A stretch of 64,000 nucleotides of DNA, taken from positions 1 to 64,000 of IMG/VR virus record IMGVR_UViG_3300010430_000024. One strand, 5' to 3'. This document shows positions 32,932 through 49,209 of this stretch, piece by piece. The notes under the pieces were generated by a model. It was not told the DNA's origin. It searched no databases and was given only the letters and a program-made list of their open reading frames with translations. A program made the position numbers and the translations under genes. This DNA comes from a virus. Every line of letters starts with the position of its first letter. Positions within the stretch are counted from its first letter, which is position 1.

Positions 32932-33007
32932 TGGACCCGCTGCCGGGAGTCGAACCCGGTCTCTCCGCTTTGAAAGGCGTTGACACTCCACAGTGCCTTC
33001 AGCGAGT
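32932..33007 (-). tRNA. Atypical tRNA-like gene, Glu(TTC)-like with an 8-nt anticodon loop
   Basis: Acceptor CTCGCTG/CAGCGGG-T-CCA; T arm CCGGG-TTCGACT-CCCGG; D arm GGCACT-GTGG-AGTGTC; anticodon arm CGC-CTTTCAAA-GCG. Confidence 0.65.
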
Positions 33008-35932: not shown

Positions 35933-36016
35933 GGAAGCGTTGAGCAACTGGTCGCTCAGCAGACTGTAAATCTGTGCCCTCTGGGATTGTAGGTTCGAAC
36001 CCTACCGCTTCCACCA
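35933..36016 (+). tRNA. tRNA-Tyr(GTA)
   Basis: GGAAGCG/CGCTTCC-A-CCA acceptor; GCAGA-CTGTAAA-TCTGT anticodon arm; long variable arm; GTAGG-TTCGAAC-CCTAC. Confidence 0.92.
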
Positions 36017-46298: not shown

Positions 46299-46350
46299 TG
46301 CTTCCCTTCTTAGTATTAACAGTATTGCTAATCATTGGTGGGTAGGGTTT

Positions 46351-46432
46351 ATCTACATCTACATCTACATCTATATCTACATGTACAAATGTCCGTAGAC
46401 AGTCCACAGACAATAGCAACTGTCCATAGACA
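46351..46432. repeat. Candidate replication-origin repeats
   Basis: ATCTAC x5 (one variant) at 46351-46380; GTCCRYAGACA x3 at 46391, 46402 and 46422. Confidence 0.55.
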
Positions 46433-46434
46433 GG

Positions 46435-46689
46435 TCAAGCAGGAAAGATGTCGGTAATACTGAGGGGATAGTCGTTGCGGCTTGCGATCTCGATGATCTT
46501 GAGTGCGGCTGGTCCACGTGGTTTTGACTTGCCTGCCTCCCAGACCCGGAGCGTGTCGATCTTGGCTTCTATCAGGTCAGCAAACTCTGGTCGGTCCATT
46601 CTGAGTTCTTCACGGAAGCGTCGAATCACATTCTGGTGGGGAGGTGTCGCGTCCGGTCTCTCGTTGGGACCAAAGGAATTTGCCATCAC
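46435..46689 (-). CDS. XRE/Cro-like HTH regulator
   Basis: IRRFREELRMDRPEFADLIEAKIDTLRVWEAGKSKP. Confidence 0.85.
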   Translation of the reverse strand: MMANSFGPNERPDATPPHQNVIRRFREELRMDRPEFADLIEAKIDTLRVWEAGKSKPRGPAALKIIEIASRNDYPLSITDIFPA

Positions 46690-46739
46690 GGTGTTCTCGT
46701 TTGTGTTATCAGGAAGGGTGATTATCTTACCACTGAGTG

Positions 46740-46767
46740 TTGACTTTCACCAGCGCGAGAGTATCAT
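46740..46767 (+). promoter_or_regulatory. Promoter of the Y-RNA array
   Basis: TTGACT-16 nt-TATCAT; predicted +1 coincides with G46774, the start of unit 1. Confidence 0.7.
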
Positions 46768-46773
46768 GCTTTC

Positions 46774-46866
46774 GCCTGAGCCGAATGCTCGTCGGTTATC
46801 CGAGCCAAACCTTCGGACGTAACCGCGAAAGCGGTCGTCAATCCGACAGCAACAACATGTTCAGGC
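46774..46866 (+). ncRNA. Y-like RNA unit 1
   Basis: GCCTGAGC(C)GA / CATGTTCAGGC stem; GTCGG-TTATC...CCGAC; internal CCGC-GAAA-GCGG hairpin. Confidence 0.75.
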
Positions 46867-46869
46867 TAA

Positions 46870-46969
46870 GCGGGATGCCAGTGGTGGCATTGCTCCATCG
46901 TCTACACCATGCTCGACAGCGAGCCGACTGAGGATGGTTATCATAGTTCGATTCTATAATCCCGCTCCA
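46870..46969 (+). ncRNA. Unit 2: tRNA-ended RNA with a permuted Ro-binding helix replacing the anticodon arm
   Basis: GCGGGAT/ATCCCGC-T-CCA; D arm GCC-AGTGGT-GGC; T arm ATAG-TTCGATT-CTAT; CATGCTCG-ACAG-CGAGCCGA followed by GGTTATC. Confidence 0.75.
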
Positions 46970-47008
46970 ATTTTGACACGTTGCGAAGCGACGTGGTGAT
47001 ACAAGTTT

Positions 47009-47090
47009 TGTGGACCGAAGATCAATCGTTATCTGTTGAGTGCGAAAAGCGCTTCTTGGAAATACCTCGGTTGCTCATACCATGTCCACA
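47009..47090 (+). ncRNA. Y-like RNA unit 3
   Basis: TGTGGAC(C)GA / CATGTCCACA; CAATCG-TTATC...CGGTTG. Confidence 0.75.
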
Positions 47091-47099
47091 TTTAAGTTT

Positions 47100-47180
47100 T
47101 GCGAGCCGATGAGTAAGAGCGTTACCCAACCTGTTAAGTTGATGGCGAAAGCCACACCGCTCTCTCGCAACATGTTCGCA
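47100..47180 (+). ncRNA. Y-like RNA unit 4 with Asn-type anticodon hairpin
   Basis: TGCGAGC(C)GA / CATGTTCGCA; AGAGCG-TTACC...CGCTCT; CAAC-CTGTTAA-GTTG. Confidence 0.75.
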
Positions 47181-47188
47181 TTTAAGTT

Positions 47189-47335
47189 TTTAGGACCGGA
47201 TGGATTGAAGGTTATCTTCTGAAAAGAGTAGGTCACTGGTTCGATTCCAGTTGCGCACCCTACAATGGTGCGTATAGCTCAGCTGGCAGAGCAACTTGCC
47301 GTAAGGCATCTCCTTCGCCAACAACATGTCCTAAA
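47189..47335 (+). ncRNA. yrlA: YrlA-type Y RNA (permuted tRNA-like domain), unit 5
   Basis: TTTAGGAC(C)GG / CATGTCCTAAA; T arm ACTGG-TTCGATT-CCAGT; loop-closed acceptor TGCGCACC/GGTGCGTA; D arm GCTC-AGCTGGCA-GAGC; adjacent to Ro60. Confidence 0.88.
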
Positions 47336-47341
47336 TTTAGT

Positions 47342-47369
47342 TTGACTTCCTATGTCAGTTGTGTACAAT
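47342..47369 (+). promoter_or_regulatory. Promoter for the Ro60 leader/mRNA
   Basis: TTGACT-16 nt-TACAAT. Confidence 0.7.
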
Positions 47370-47477
47370 CGCCTTTCGGTTGTTCAACAACATGCTCGAC
47401 AGCCCCACAACCGGGCGCAGCTGCGTAGCTGCTTTTATTCGAGCCGAGGAAGAATCGTTATCTATGATGAAGAGGCG
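47370..47477 (+). ncRNA. Unit 6: circularly permuted Y-like element in the Ro leader
   Basis: 3'-type strand CAACAACATGCTCGA precedes 5'-type strand TCGAGCCGA...AATCGTTATC. Confidence 0.65.
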
Positions 47478-47535
47478 TTTGAGGCTCAGTCGGTGAATAG
47501 ACTTCTCAAAGGAGGACACCACTGAGCCGAGCCAA

Positions 47536-47571
47536 TTTTTGTATGCTCGTGATGGACGAGCCGAACAGGGG
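47536..47571 (+). promoter_or_regulatory. Unit 7: minimal Ro-binding hairpin overlapping the Ro60 ribosome-binding site
   Basis: TTTTGT-ATGCTCGT-GATGG-ACGAGCCGA-ACAGGGG, 6 nt before ATG 47578. Confidence 0.6.
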
Positions 47572-47577
47572 AAAAAG

Positions 47578-49209
47578 ATGGACTATTCAAAGCACGTAAA
47601 TACTCGCGCCACCTCACAGCGTGAGCGCACTCCCGGCAGGACTGATGAAGTCAAGAACAGCGAAGGTGGATTCGTCCATGCTGTTAGTGATTGGGATCGT
47701 CTTGACCGCTTCCTGATTCTGGGTTCTGAAGGTGGAACCTTTTACATCAGCGAGAGCAACCTGACCAAGGACAATGCTGAAGGCACCATCCGACTAATCA
47801 AACAGGATGGACTTCGTGTCGTTAATACGGTTGTCGAAATCTCACAGGCTGGTCGTTCGCATAAGAACGATGCTGCCCTGTTTGTACTCGCTATGTGCGC
47901 GAAGCTGGGCAATGAGCAGACTCGTAAGCTGGCACTTGGCGTATTGCCCAAGGTCGCTCGAACGGGTACTCACTTGTTTCAGTTCGCAACCTTCATTGAA
48001 GCCTTCGGTGGTTGGGGCCGCGCAACTAAGCGTGCCTTCCAGCGTTGGTACAATGAGCGGGACAACGACAAGCTGGCTTACCAGCTGTTGAAGTACCGTC
48101 AGCGTGATGGTTGGACTCACCGTGACATCATGCGTCTGGCTCACCCGGTTACGACCGATGACCAGAAGCGTGCGATGTTCGATGTGACGACTCACCCAGA
48201 GAAGCTGGATAACGTAGACGTTCGTGCCGAGCTGCCTGAGATTTATCAGGGCTATCACATGGCGCGTGACGACATGCCCAGCGCTGACAGGGTTGAGCTT
48301 CTGAAAGACTTCAACCTGTCGTGGGAAATGCTACCGACTGAGTGGCTGAAGGATGAAGCTGTGAACACGCAGCTGCTCCAGAAGATGCCGCTCATGGCTA
48401 CCATTCGTCAGCTCGGTAAGATGACTGCGAACGGTACGCTGAAGCCGATGGACATGAACACCAAGCTGGTGTTGGAGCGTCTGATGGATGACGAGCAGAT
48501 CAAGCGCTCACGCATTCACCCGATGCACTACTTGCTGGCGTTGAAGAACTACTCAGCTGGTCACGGCTTCCGTGGCGGCATGACTTGGAACTCTGACCCA
48601 CGTGTGATCTCTGCACTGGATAAGGGATTCGAGAAGTCGTTCGCGAATGTCGAGCCTACTGGTAAGGCGTTCATGCTCGGTGTCGATGTCTCAAGCTCGA
48701 TGCGATGTGCGGTCTCTGGATCGAACATCAGTTGTGCAGAGGCTGCTGGTGCCATGGCAATGGTGATCGCTCGTACTGAGCCTGTTCACTTCGTCCACGG
48801 CTTTACCAGTGGATCGAGTCGCGGCTACAGCTATCGTCAGTCCAATGTTGAGGGCTTCGTTGATCTCGGCATTGGCTCGAACGACTCAATGGCAAGCGTG
48901 ATGAGTAAGGTGCAGAACCGAAACTTTGGTGGCACCGACTGCGCAGTTCCGATGTTGTACGCCTCGGCAAACAACATCATGGTTGACACCTTCGTGGTGT
49001 TGACTGATTCGGAAACGTGGGCTGGTGACATCAAGCCAGCTCAGGCTTTGCAGTCATACCGTCAGACCCATAACCCGAACGCTAAGCTCGTGGTTGTTGG
49101 CATGACTTCAAATGGATTCAGCATTGCTGATCCGAACGATGCTGGCATGTTGGATGTGGTCGGCTTCGACGCTAACGTACTCCCCGTTATCGCGGAGTTC
49201 AGTAGATAA
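47578..49209 (+). CDS. rsr: Ro60 / Rsr (TROVE + vWA) RNA-binding protein
   Basis: NSEGGF...RLDRFLILGSEGGTFY, GWGR...WY, KYRQRDGWTHRD..RLAHP, IHP, DVSSSM, GGTDCA.PM, TDSETW and SIADPNDAGMLDVVGFD. Confidence 0.96.
   Translation: MDYSKHVNTRATSQRERTPGRTDEVKNSEGGFVHAVSDWDRLDRFLILGSEGGTFYISESNLTKDNAEGTIRLIKQDGLRVVNTVVEISQAGRSHKNDAALFVLAMCAKLGNEQTRKLALGVLPKVARTGTHLFQFATFIEAFGGWGRATKRAFQRWYNERDNDKLAYQLLKYRQRDGWTHRDIMRLAHPVTTDDQKRAMFDVTTHPEKLDNVDVRAELPEIYQGYHMARDDMPSADRVELLKDFNLSWEMLPTEWLKDEAVNTQLLQKMPLMATIRQLGKMTANGTLKPMDMNTKLVLERLMDDEQIKRSRIHPMHYLLALKNYSAGHGFRGGMTWNSDPRVISALDKGFEKSFANVEPTGKAFMLGVDVSSSMRCAVSGSNISCAEAAGAMAMVIARTEPVHFVHGFTSGSSRGYSYRQSNVEGFVDLGIGSNDSMASVMSKVQNRNFGGTDCAVPMLYASANNIMVDTFVVLTDSETWAGDIKPAQALQSYRQTHNPNAKLVVVGMTSNGFSIADPNDAGMLDVVGFDANVLPVIAEFSR

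Follow-up and report, generated by a model that had tools for sequence, protein, structure and literature searches.

A tRNA anticodon-arm-like hairpin in Y RNAs linked to a phage Ro60 gene

Units 4 and 5 of the array upstream of the phage Ro60 gene

The stretch of DNA analysed here (the window) comprises positions 1 to 64,000 of IMG/VR virus record IMGVR_UViG_3300010430_000024, the first 64 kb of a 73,646-base phage record, and it carries a Ro60 gene preceded by a series of short units, in one of which, as in many units of related loci, the first hairpin resembles the anticodon arm of a tRNA. The Ro60/TROVE gene lies at 47578..49209 on the + strand and codes for 543 amino acids (aa) from the ATG at 47578, with Pfam matches to TROVE (6.4e-39) and vWA_Ro60 (5.4e-60). 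On the same strand, 5' of this gene, the units start with G-R-N-C-C-G-R, show GTTAYC 6-18 bases further on and end in CAYGYYC, and an open reading frame (ORF) scan detected no ORF longer than 64 aa in the ~890 bases between 46690 and 47577. Judged from these features, the region upstream of Ro60 is an array of Y-RNA-like genes with at least six, about seven, units, and the Ro60 ORF begins 245 nucleotides (nt) downstream of the end of unit 5. A sigma-70-like promoter at 46740..46767 (+; TTGACT-16-TATCAT, 10/12 matches) is kept in relatives and is placed to drive units 1-5 as one transcript. The promoter scan placed a second sigma-70-like site at 47342-47369 (+), and the array region holds four such sites against 0.8 expected.

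Unit 4 (47101..47179, +) is a predicted small Y RNA with a Ro-type terminal stem (GCGAGCC.../...GTTCGC), an inner stem (AGAGCG/CGCTCT), a GTTACC junction at 47121-47126 (+) and two hairpins, and it has neither T, D and acceptor arms nor an Rfam YrlA match. The first hairpin, at 47127..47141 (+), is the anticodon-arm-like one: CAAC (47127-47130) and GTTG (47138-47141) enclose the loop CTGTTAA (47131-47137), which, as C-U-GUU-A-A, fits the 7-nt pattern of Y32, U33, R37 and A38 and which we take to be identical to the anticodon loop of bacterial tRNA-Asn. The second, TGGC-GAAA-GCCA at 47143..47154 (+), is GNRA-capped. The whole unit folds with a z-score of -2.79, and the CAAC-CUGUUAA-GUUG hairpin is present in its minimum-energy fold.

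Relatives were gathered through the Ro60 protein in viral, genome and metagenome contigs and through a DNA pattern (L-numbers denote loci), and pairs in the unit 4 orthologues were counted by script, as MAFFT had misaligned the short hairpins. Pairs 28:42 to 31:39 of the first hairpin form in 8/8 orthologues, with 2-4 pair types at each position. The eight loops are CTGTTAA (three times), CTTGAAA, CTGAAAT, CTAAAAC and the 8-nt CTCTGAAA (twice), so that the initial CU and A37 are invariant while the centres read GUU in three, UGA, GAA and AAA in one each and differ again in the two 8-nt loops. The inner stem shows a compensatory change in L002 (AGAGCG/CGCTCT to AGATCG/CGATCT), and the second hairpin keeps its tetraloop, GAAA in seven orthologues and UUCG in L003. 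On this comparative evidence the unit 4 hairpin is real and its loop appears to be under selection. A pattern search of viral contigs for more orthologues gave 106 stretches, of which a stricter filter left five; three were known loci and L235 was the only new one. L278 was rejected as an orthologue, as it has neither the hairpins of the unit nor its 3' strand and looks like a chance match. No kissing partner for the unit 4 loop was found in the array RNA; its complement, TTAACAG, occurs five times in the window against 5.23 expected.

Unit 5 (47192..47332, +; fold z-score -2.73) is a YrlA-like Y RNA in which a Ro-type stem (AGGACCGG.../...CATGTCCT) surrounds a circularly permuted tRNA. Its parts, all on the + strand, are a GTTATC junction at 47211-47216, a weak hairpin at the anticodon-arm place (47215..47229) with three possible registers, a variable-loop-like AGGUC at 47230-47234, and a T arm, ACUGG-UUCGAUU-CCAGU, at 47235-47251. 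A closed 7-pair acceptor stem follows at 47252..47274 (TGCGCAC 47252-47258, GTGCGTA 47268-47274) around the conserved loop CCTACAATG, and then U8-A9, the D arm GCUC-AGCUGGCA-GAGC and A26 at 47275..47293; a GNRA-capped hairpin, TGCC-GTAA-GGCA (47297..47308), separates the D arm from the 3' strand of the Ro stem. Sequence, fold and Rfam all identify the T and D arms, and the acceptor stem shows compensatory changes in relatives (TGCTCAC/GTGAGTA and TGCCCAC/GTGGGTA). T arm, closed acceptor stem and D arm thus follow one another in the permuted order of YrlA RNAs. The Rfam YrlA model (RF02553) matches unit 5 with 36.4 bits (E 5.7e-6), below its gathering score of 69, as the only YrlA match in the array, and five relatives score 34.8-47 bits. 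The Rfam tRNA model reaches 18.3 bits (E 1.1) at 47186-47259, below the 29-bit level set for a genuine tRNA, and ARAGORN called no tRNA in 46700-47600; at the gathering threshold, the sole Rfam match in the window is a tRNA at 35933. Predicted terminal stems of both units carry sequences (GAGCCGA in unit 4, GGACCGG in unit 5) that resemble the Y-RNA end motif (like GGUCCGA or GNCGAAN0-1G) without matching it exactly.

The hairpin across Ro60 loci and other RNAs around Ro60 genes

The sequence-only reading from which this work started had proposed that the hairpin after GUUAYC mimics a tRNA anticodon arm, and a survey of ~190 Ro60 loci, enlarged by Ro60 alignment to 80 viral and 80 genome loci, bears this out. 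The letters which that reading gave for units 4 and 5 are all present where it placed them. A scan of the loci for the 5' motif followed by GTTAYC gave 350 distinct units. To be counted, a hairpin needed a start 0-8 nt behind GTTAYC, a loop of 7 nt and 4 pairs or more. CTNNNAA loops were found in 37 of the 152 such hairpins, compared with 298 of 40930 comparable hairpins anywhere in the same loci (0.73%), a background that includes real tRNAs. False positives from 23S rRNA (CCGT-aactata-ACGG) are included in this survey and in the counts on 116 units with a T arm given below, and are excluded from the counts on 228 units, 49 loops and 120 loci. Among the 228 units with no T arm, the best first hairpin had a 7-nt loop in 51, and 20 of these read CTNNNAA. 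The loop starts anywhere from 0 to 7 nt after GTTAYC, therefore its CU belongs to the loop and not to the junction motif. Within the window alone the case for more than chance is thin; across loci it is strong.

The composition of the loops points in the same direction. CTGTTAA occurs on 7 different stems in the survey, and an eighth (TAAA/TTTA) was found in L235, while the Longimicrobium/Gemmatimonadota group shows a constant stem with many different triplets. Homologous arrays therefore keep the CU and A flanks around variable centres, as had been anticipated, both in this group and among the unit 4 orthologues. G37 was found only after G36 (4/7 versus 0/42, Fisher p 1.7e-4), a coupling that matches the m1G37 rule of bacterial tRNAs. 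Many of the survey loops are presumably identical to bacterial anticodon loops, namely those of tRNAs for Asn (CUGUUAA), Lys (CUUUUAA), Ser (CUGCUAA), Thr (CUCGUAA and CUUGUAA), Asp (CUGUCAC), Ile (CUGAUAA) and Tyr (CUGUAAA). ARAGORN unaided called 12 of 351 units a tRNA and took the hairpin after GTTAYC as the anticodon arm. Anticodon-like hairpins were present in 42 of 120 unit-bearing loci, 15/40 viral and 25/72 cellular. A comparison with 498 ARAGORN tRNAs parsed from the loci, 155 of them with CTNNNAA loops, is rough only, since C33 in 86 of them indicates parsing errors.

A register independent of the loop letters was obtained from 116 distinct units in which a T arm lies no further than 45 nt away, by counting back from the T stem and requiring at least three pairs. 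The T stem most often lies 18-19 nt behind GTTAYC (54/116), a spacing that equals a 5-7-5 arm plus a 5-nt variable loop when the AUC of GUUAUC is taken as positions 27-29. In 44 of the 116 units a 7-nt loop is closed exactly at positions 27-43. Position 32 of these loops is C in 31 and U in 8 (Y in 39/44), position 33 is U in 40, position 37 is A in 26 and G in 15 (R in 41/44) and position 38 is A in 35; the five bases after the hairpin read A, G, G, U and C in 30, 39, 43, 38 and 34 of the 44, the class I variable-loop pattern. In the spacing-19 class (30 units), 83.3% of cells pair, compared with 26-46% when the partners are slid, and the observed covariation score was reached by 0/500 shuffles; four pairs covary and 27:43 never pairs. 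The permuted order of all four tRNA arms, which the sequence-only reading had described for unit 5, thus stands for the family by its modal spacing, and in unit 5 itself for the T, acceptor and D arms, but its anticodon hairpin is marginal. Un-permuting was tried as well: strict D-arm and acceptor rules allowed only 19 of the 116 units to be rebuilt, and ARAGORN called 18 of these tRNAs, among them unit 5 as tRNA-Phe(gaa). This is not counted as support, because 15/19 were still called tRNA after their anticodon arm had been shuffled.

Ro60 genes of Myxococcota and other bacteria (loci L114-L193, e.g. L175, L180, L146 and L158) lie inside dense arrays of same-strand tRNAs. ARAGORN found 519 tRNAs in 73 loci, 509 of them on the Ro60 strand and up to 27 in 6.6 kb, and at least 14 loci have a tRNA-Asn(GTT) that begins no more than ~350 nt from the Ro60 stop. 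In Gordonia phage Boopy (L302, MK894436) the record annotates Ro60 followed by tRNA-Asn, transfer-messenger RNA (tmRNA) and more tRNA genes. Rfam tRNA matches of 120-127 nt (L175:4485-4607, L175:4923-5043, L124:1847-1973, L185:1861-1981) may reach across two neighbouring Y units, with the D arm taken from the first and the T arm from the second. Units in tandem might perhaps lend themselves to a second reading, as tRNAs that hold a Ro stem at 26/27.

Other features of the window surround the array. At 46870-46969 lies a tRNA-like RNA in natural order, with the acceptor stem GCGGGAT/ATCCCGC followed by TCCA, a D arm, a T arm (ATAGTTCGATTCTAT) and TTATC as variable loop; a long Ro-type stem closed by ACAG replaces the anticodon arm, and the RNA is kept in L002, L004, L006, L010 and L235. 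Behind the second promoter, a second transcription unit extends over 47372-47540, in which, tentatively, the 3' strand of a Ro-type stem precedes the 5' strand, a terminator-like hairpin (47417-47432) lies between the two strands, and the unit ends in ...GAGCCAATTTTT. Just 5' of the Ro60 ribosome-binding site and ATG, a hairpin in the mRNA leader (47543-47565, ATGCTCG-TGATGGA-CGAGCCGAA) resembles a Ro-type stem with a loop and is kept in L001-L004, L006, L010, L011, L235 and Microbacterium phage Cece; Ro60 translation may be autoregulated through it. Between divergent early genes and upstream of a small ORF (46438-46689, -), positions 46340-46435 hold short repeats in tandem, of TCTACA and its variants, as well as recurring GTCCNTAGACAG-like words; these may be operator sites. 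ARAGORN also reported, at 32932-33006 (-), a tRNA to which it assigned no type and an 'anticodon' of two bases (tc); this tRNA is absent from the Rfam output at gathering threshold. By Pfam, the window encodes terminase subunits, primase, helicase, YqaJ exonuclease, RecT, SSB and a 2336-aa polyvalent protein.

Weighing the anticodon-arm reading

We lean, with some reserve, towards the reading that Ro60-linked Y RNAs carry a mimic of the tRNA anticodon arm as their protein-recruiting end. Units 4 and 5 would then be two of at least six Ro60-binding Y RNAs transcribed from the sigma-70-like promoter just 5' of the phage Ro60 gene, each built from a Ro-type terminal stem (5' GRNCCGR..., 3' ...CAYGYYC), a conserved GUUAYC junction and an effector module. 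The module of unit 5 would be a tRNA permuted at 26/27, with the Ro stem lodged between D arm and anticodon arm and a loop closing the acceptor, and RNAs of the unit 4 type would have lost the tRNA core (T, acceptor and D arms) and kept the hairpin at the anticodon place together with a GNRA/tetraloop hairpin. The first hairpin would be an anticodon stem-loop mimic, most likely a descendant, of 4-5 pairs with the 7-nt loop C32-U33-NNN-A37-A38, and its anticodon-like U-turn loop would be presented to a host protein that reads anticodon loops. Candidate readers are Tgt, t6A or i6A enzymes, TrmD, the anticodon-binding domain of a synthetase or an anticodon nuclease, and the protein recruited could be tethered to Ro60 or kept away from tRNA. 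The sequences show the anatomy, the conservation, the register and the loop statistics; Ro60 binding, tRNA descent and all of the function are inferences. In the light of published work on Y RNAs, the simplest role for the loop would be that of a handle for such a protein. In passages of Wang 2018 (bioRxiv 10.1101/312249), Y RNAs are described as tethering Ro60 to effector proteins, and in Deinococcus the second protein tethered to Ro60 by a Y RNA is PNPase; portions of Chen 2014 (PMC4201824) report that YrlA is modified by TruB and DusA and that the Mycobacterium smegmatis YrlA is cleaved by RNase P, and the cut RNA receives CCA.

Several observations weigh against this reading. The unit 4 hairpin alone is worth only -0.2 kcal/mol, and its stem has 4 pairs and a C-A mismatch where a tRNA anticodon stem has 5 bp. 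The unit 5 loop had been read as a second CU-NNN-AA loop, with the Phe anticodon GAA, and here the claim that stands for unit 4 does not extend to unit 5: the hairpin (CTT 47216-47218, CTGAAAA 47219-47225, GAG 47226-47228, +) has 3 pairs including one U-G, costs +1.7 kcal/mol alone and lies one base off the tRNA register. The hairpin in that register, UCU-UCUGAAA-AGA, costs +1.0 kcal/mol and has C33 in its loop, and a pentaloop form, UCUU-CUGAA-AAGA, reaches -0.2 kcal/mol. In L001 the stem proposed for unit 5 is broken and only 2 pairs form in the tRNA register, L002 closes UCUGAAA with UAUC/GAUG, and L235, L012 and L032 carry other loops on UCA/UGA or UCU/AGA. Since the hairpin is marginal and the relatives disagree, 'Phe GAA' is just one among several readings. 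In the wider survey, a first hairpin with 4 or more pairs is missing from 77 of the 228 units that lack a T arm, and 72 of the 116 units that possess one show no hairpin in register. GUU is the commonest centre (9/49), yet no excess over the expectation from base frequencies was seen (p 0.14). The centres AUU, ACU, AUC, AAA and AUG are, to our knowledge, not natural bacterial anticodons, which fits drift rather than mimicry of particular tRNAs, and the loci are mutually related, so that the counts are not independent events. Finally, in the Salmonella YrlA crystal structure, as described in a passage of Wang 2018, it is the Ro-connecting helix and not a hairpin that is found in the anticodon stem's position.

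That last observation favours an alternative that goes back to Chen et al. 2014. Here the anticodon stem is the helix that connects to Ro, and the hairpin 5' of the T arm is a long variable arm of the class II type; along the chain, the place of the hairpin is indeed between this helix and the T arm. We nevertheless hold this to be very unlikely, because the anticodon arm fits better in three respects. The hairpin is followed by the full A-G-G-U-C of a variable loop, at the frequencies given above, while, so far as is known, a class II variable arm is followed by only one or two bases; its loop has 7 nt and reads Y32-U33...R37-A38, while variable arms are known to carry loops of 3-5 nt; and the spacing is that of a 5-7-5 arm plus 5. 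It could also be argued that the hairpin is a leftover of a tRNA ancestor, kept only for the folding of a multi-helix junction and with a loop that nothing reads. A model for the origin of YrlA from a dimeric tRNA transcript exists (cited in a passage of Wang 2018), the centres vary freely and include non-anticodon triplets, the closest relatives of unit 5 show drift in both the size and the sequence of the loop, and many T-arm units do without an in-register hairpin. However, such a purely structural relic fits poorly, because the loop is conserved over changing stems, with CU and A37 fixed while the stems turn over completely and CTGTTAA found on 7 of them, and because the coupling of G36 with G37 is difficult to account for unless some enzyme or factor reads the loop. 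The hairpin also survives in RNAs of the unit 4 type that are otherwise stripped of tRNA parts, and we regard a role in structure only as rather unlikely.

The remaining alternative, which the sequence-only reading had put forward, takes the loops as decoys: Ro60 would stabilise a panel of anticodon-loop baits that soak up tRNA-cleaving defence enzymes, or are cut in place of the tRNA, and so protect phage translation. The loops obey the anticodon consensus, an array holds several units with different loops, and 17 of the 49 loops carry G34-U35. A G-U dinucleotide at 34-35 is recognised by colicin E5-type nucleases and by Tgt. Ro60 is also grouped with RNA-repair genes in jumbo phages, as a part of PMC7824862 reports, and according to a portion of PMC7790460 rsr lies in one operon with rtcBA, which responds to damaged tRNAs. 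The decoy idea is weakened, however, because bacteria carry the feature as often as viruses and because a Pfam search with 37 of the window's 73 called ORFs gave no match to a nuclease, an RNA ligase or a repair gene. In addition, only one of the about seven units in the window has a clean anticodon-like loop, and several centres are, as said, not anticodons that we know of, which leaves the decoy unlikely. Hairpins that are as common in bacterial as in viral loci indicate a role that is not phage-specific, and this argues against a purely anti-defence function.

If the hairpin is an anticodon-arm mimic, the search for effectors narrows to proteins that read anticodon loops, the descent of these RNAs from tRNA gains direct support, and the question can be tested with a hairpin of 15-19 nt and simple loop mutants. 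For phage biology, host tRNA metabolism, or defence directed at tRNA, would become a possible target of Ro60 arrays. A system for such tests is at hand, since Microbacterium phage Cece has been cultured and its Ro60-leader array has the same layout, with three units: a UUUGA-CUAGUAA-UCGAA hairpin, a CUGGC-GAAA-GCC hairpin and a tRNA-like unit. Two bolder ideas can be added. It is conceivable, if doubtful, that Ro60 particles display exchangeable anticodon loops as a specificity module to capture, sequester or sense anticodon-reading enzymes (anticodon nucleases, Tgt, enzymes for t6A, i6A or m1G37), phage arrays then being an RNA-based counter-defence or a means of reprogramming host tRNA metabolism. 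In a bolder branch of this idea, and by analogy with the M. smegmatis YrlA, units with a 7-bp acceptor stem like that of unit 5 could be opened by RNase P, given CCA and charged, since they would also bear an anticodon identity element.

Comparison with known RNAs

Mimics of tRNA with a stand-in for the anticodon domain are known from tmRNA and from the tRNA-like structure of turnip yellow mosaic virus (both mentioned in a passage of Wang 2018), but these have free CCA ends, are aminoacylated, show no link to Ro60 and are not permuted in this way. Circularly permuted tRNA genes, which the same source cites from some algae and one archaeon, likewise have a loop that closes the acceptor stem and RNA ends at another place of the cloverleaf. 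However, they become working tRNAs, whereas in the RNAs described here a Ro-binding helix fills the break at 26/27 and no sign of a decoding role was seen. Yrn1 of Deinococcus radiodurans is a Y RNA that a portion of Chen 2014 draws with a potential anticodon arm on a 5-bp stem, but its loop has 6 nt, it has no V arm, the orientation of its T and D arms differs, and it is regarded as a lineage of its own.

The closest counterpart is YrlA (RF02553) of Salmonella and M. smegmatis, which, like unit 5, has a Ro60 gene as same-strand neighbour, a Ro-binding 5' motif, a permuted series of T arm, closed acceptor and D arm, and, in the variable loop, a pyrimidine of the tRNA type. Sequences related to YrlA are reported from 22 phages in the part of Chen 2014 at hand. 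Unit 5 nevertheless reaches only 36.4 bits against the gathering score of 69 and unit 4 lacks all of the T, D and acceptor arms; a search of control genomes with the YrlA model gave no canonical example for comparison. The main difference concerns the hairpin. Y RNAs that mimic tRNA are known, and the published picture is of a mimic without an anticodon loop, as stated for YrlA in a passage of Wang 2018, whereas many GUUAYC-type units carry a separate hairpin at that place. Searches of the full text of articles found no statement that Y RNAs carry an anticodon-loop mimic, and such mimicry is not stated in the available portions of a 2026 preprint on tRNA mimics and a 2025 paper on Thermus phage Ro60.

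The hairpin itself has almost certainly been seen before. Chen 2014 describes, in the portion at hand, a 'V' stem-loop in many YrlA RNAs, upstream of the T arm, less conserved and located after a conserved YUAY (here GUUAYC), which is almost certainly the hairpin that follows GUUAYC. It was read there as a variable arm, and that portion mentions neither a 7-nt CU-NNN-RA loop nor the 27-43 register nor the variable-loop consensus that follows. YrlA-type Y RNAs as such are known, and the literature searched contains no anticodon reading of their hairpin. By the sequence comparisons reported here, anticodon-arm mimicry appears to be general for Ro60-linked RNAs, which would copy more of the tRNA than had been thought.

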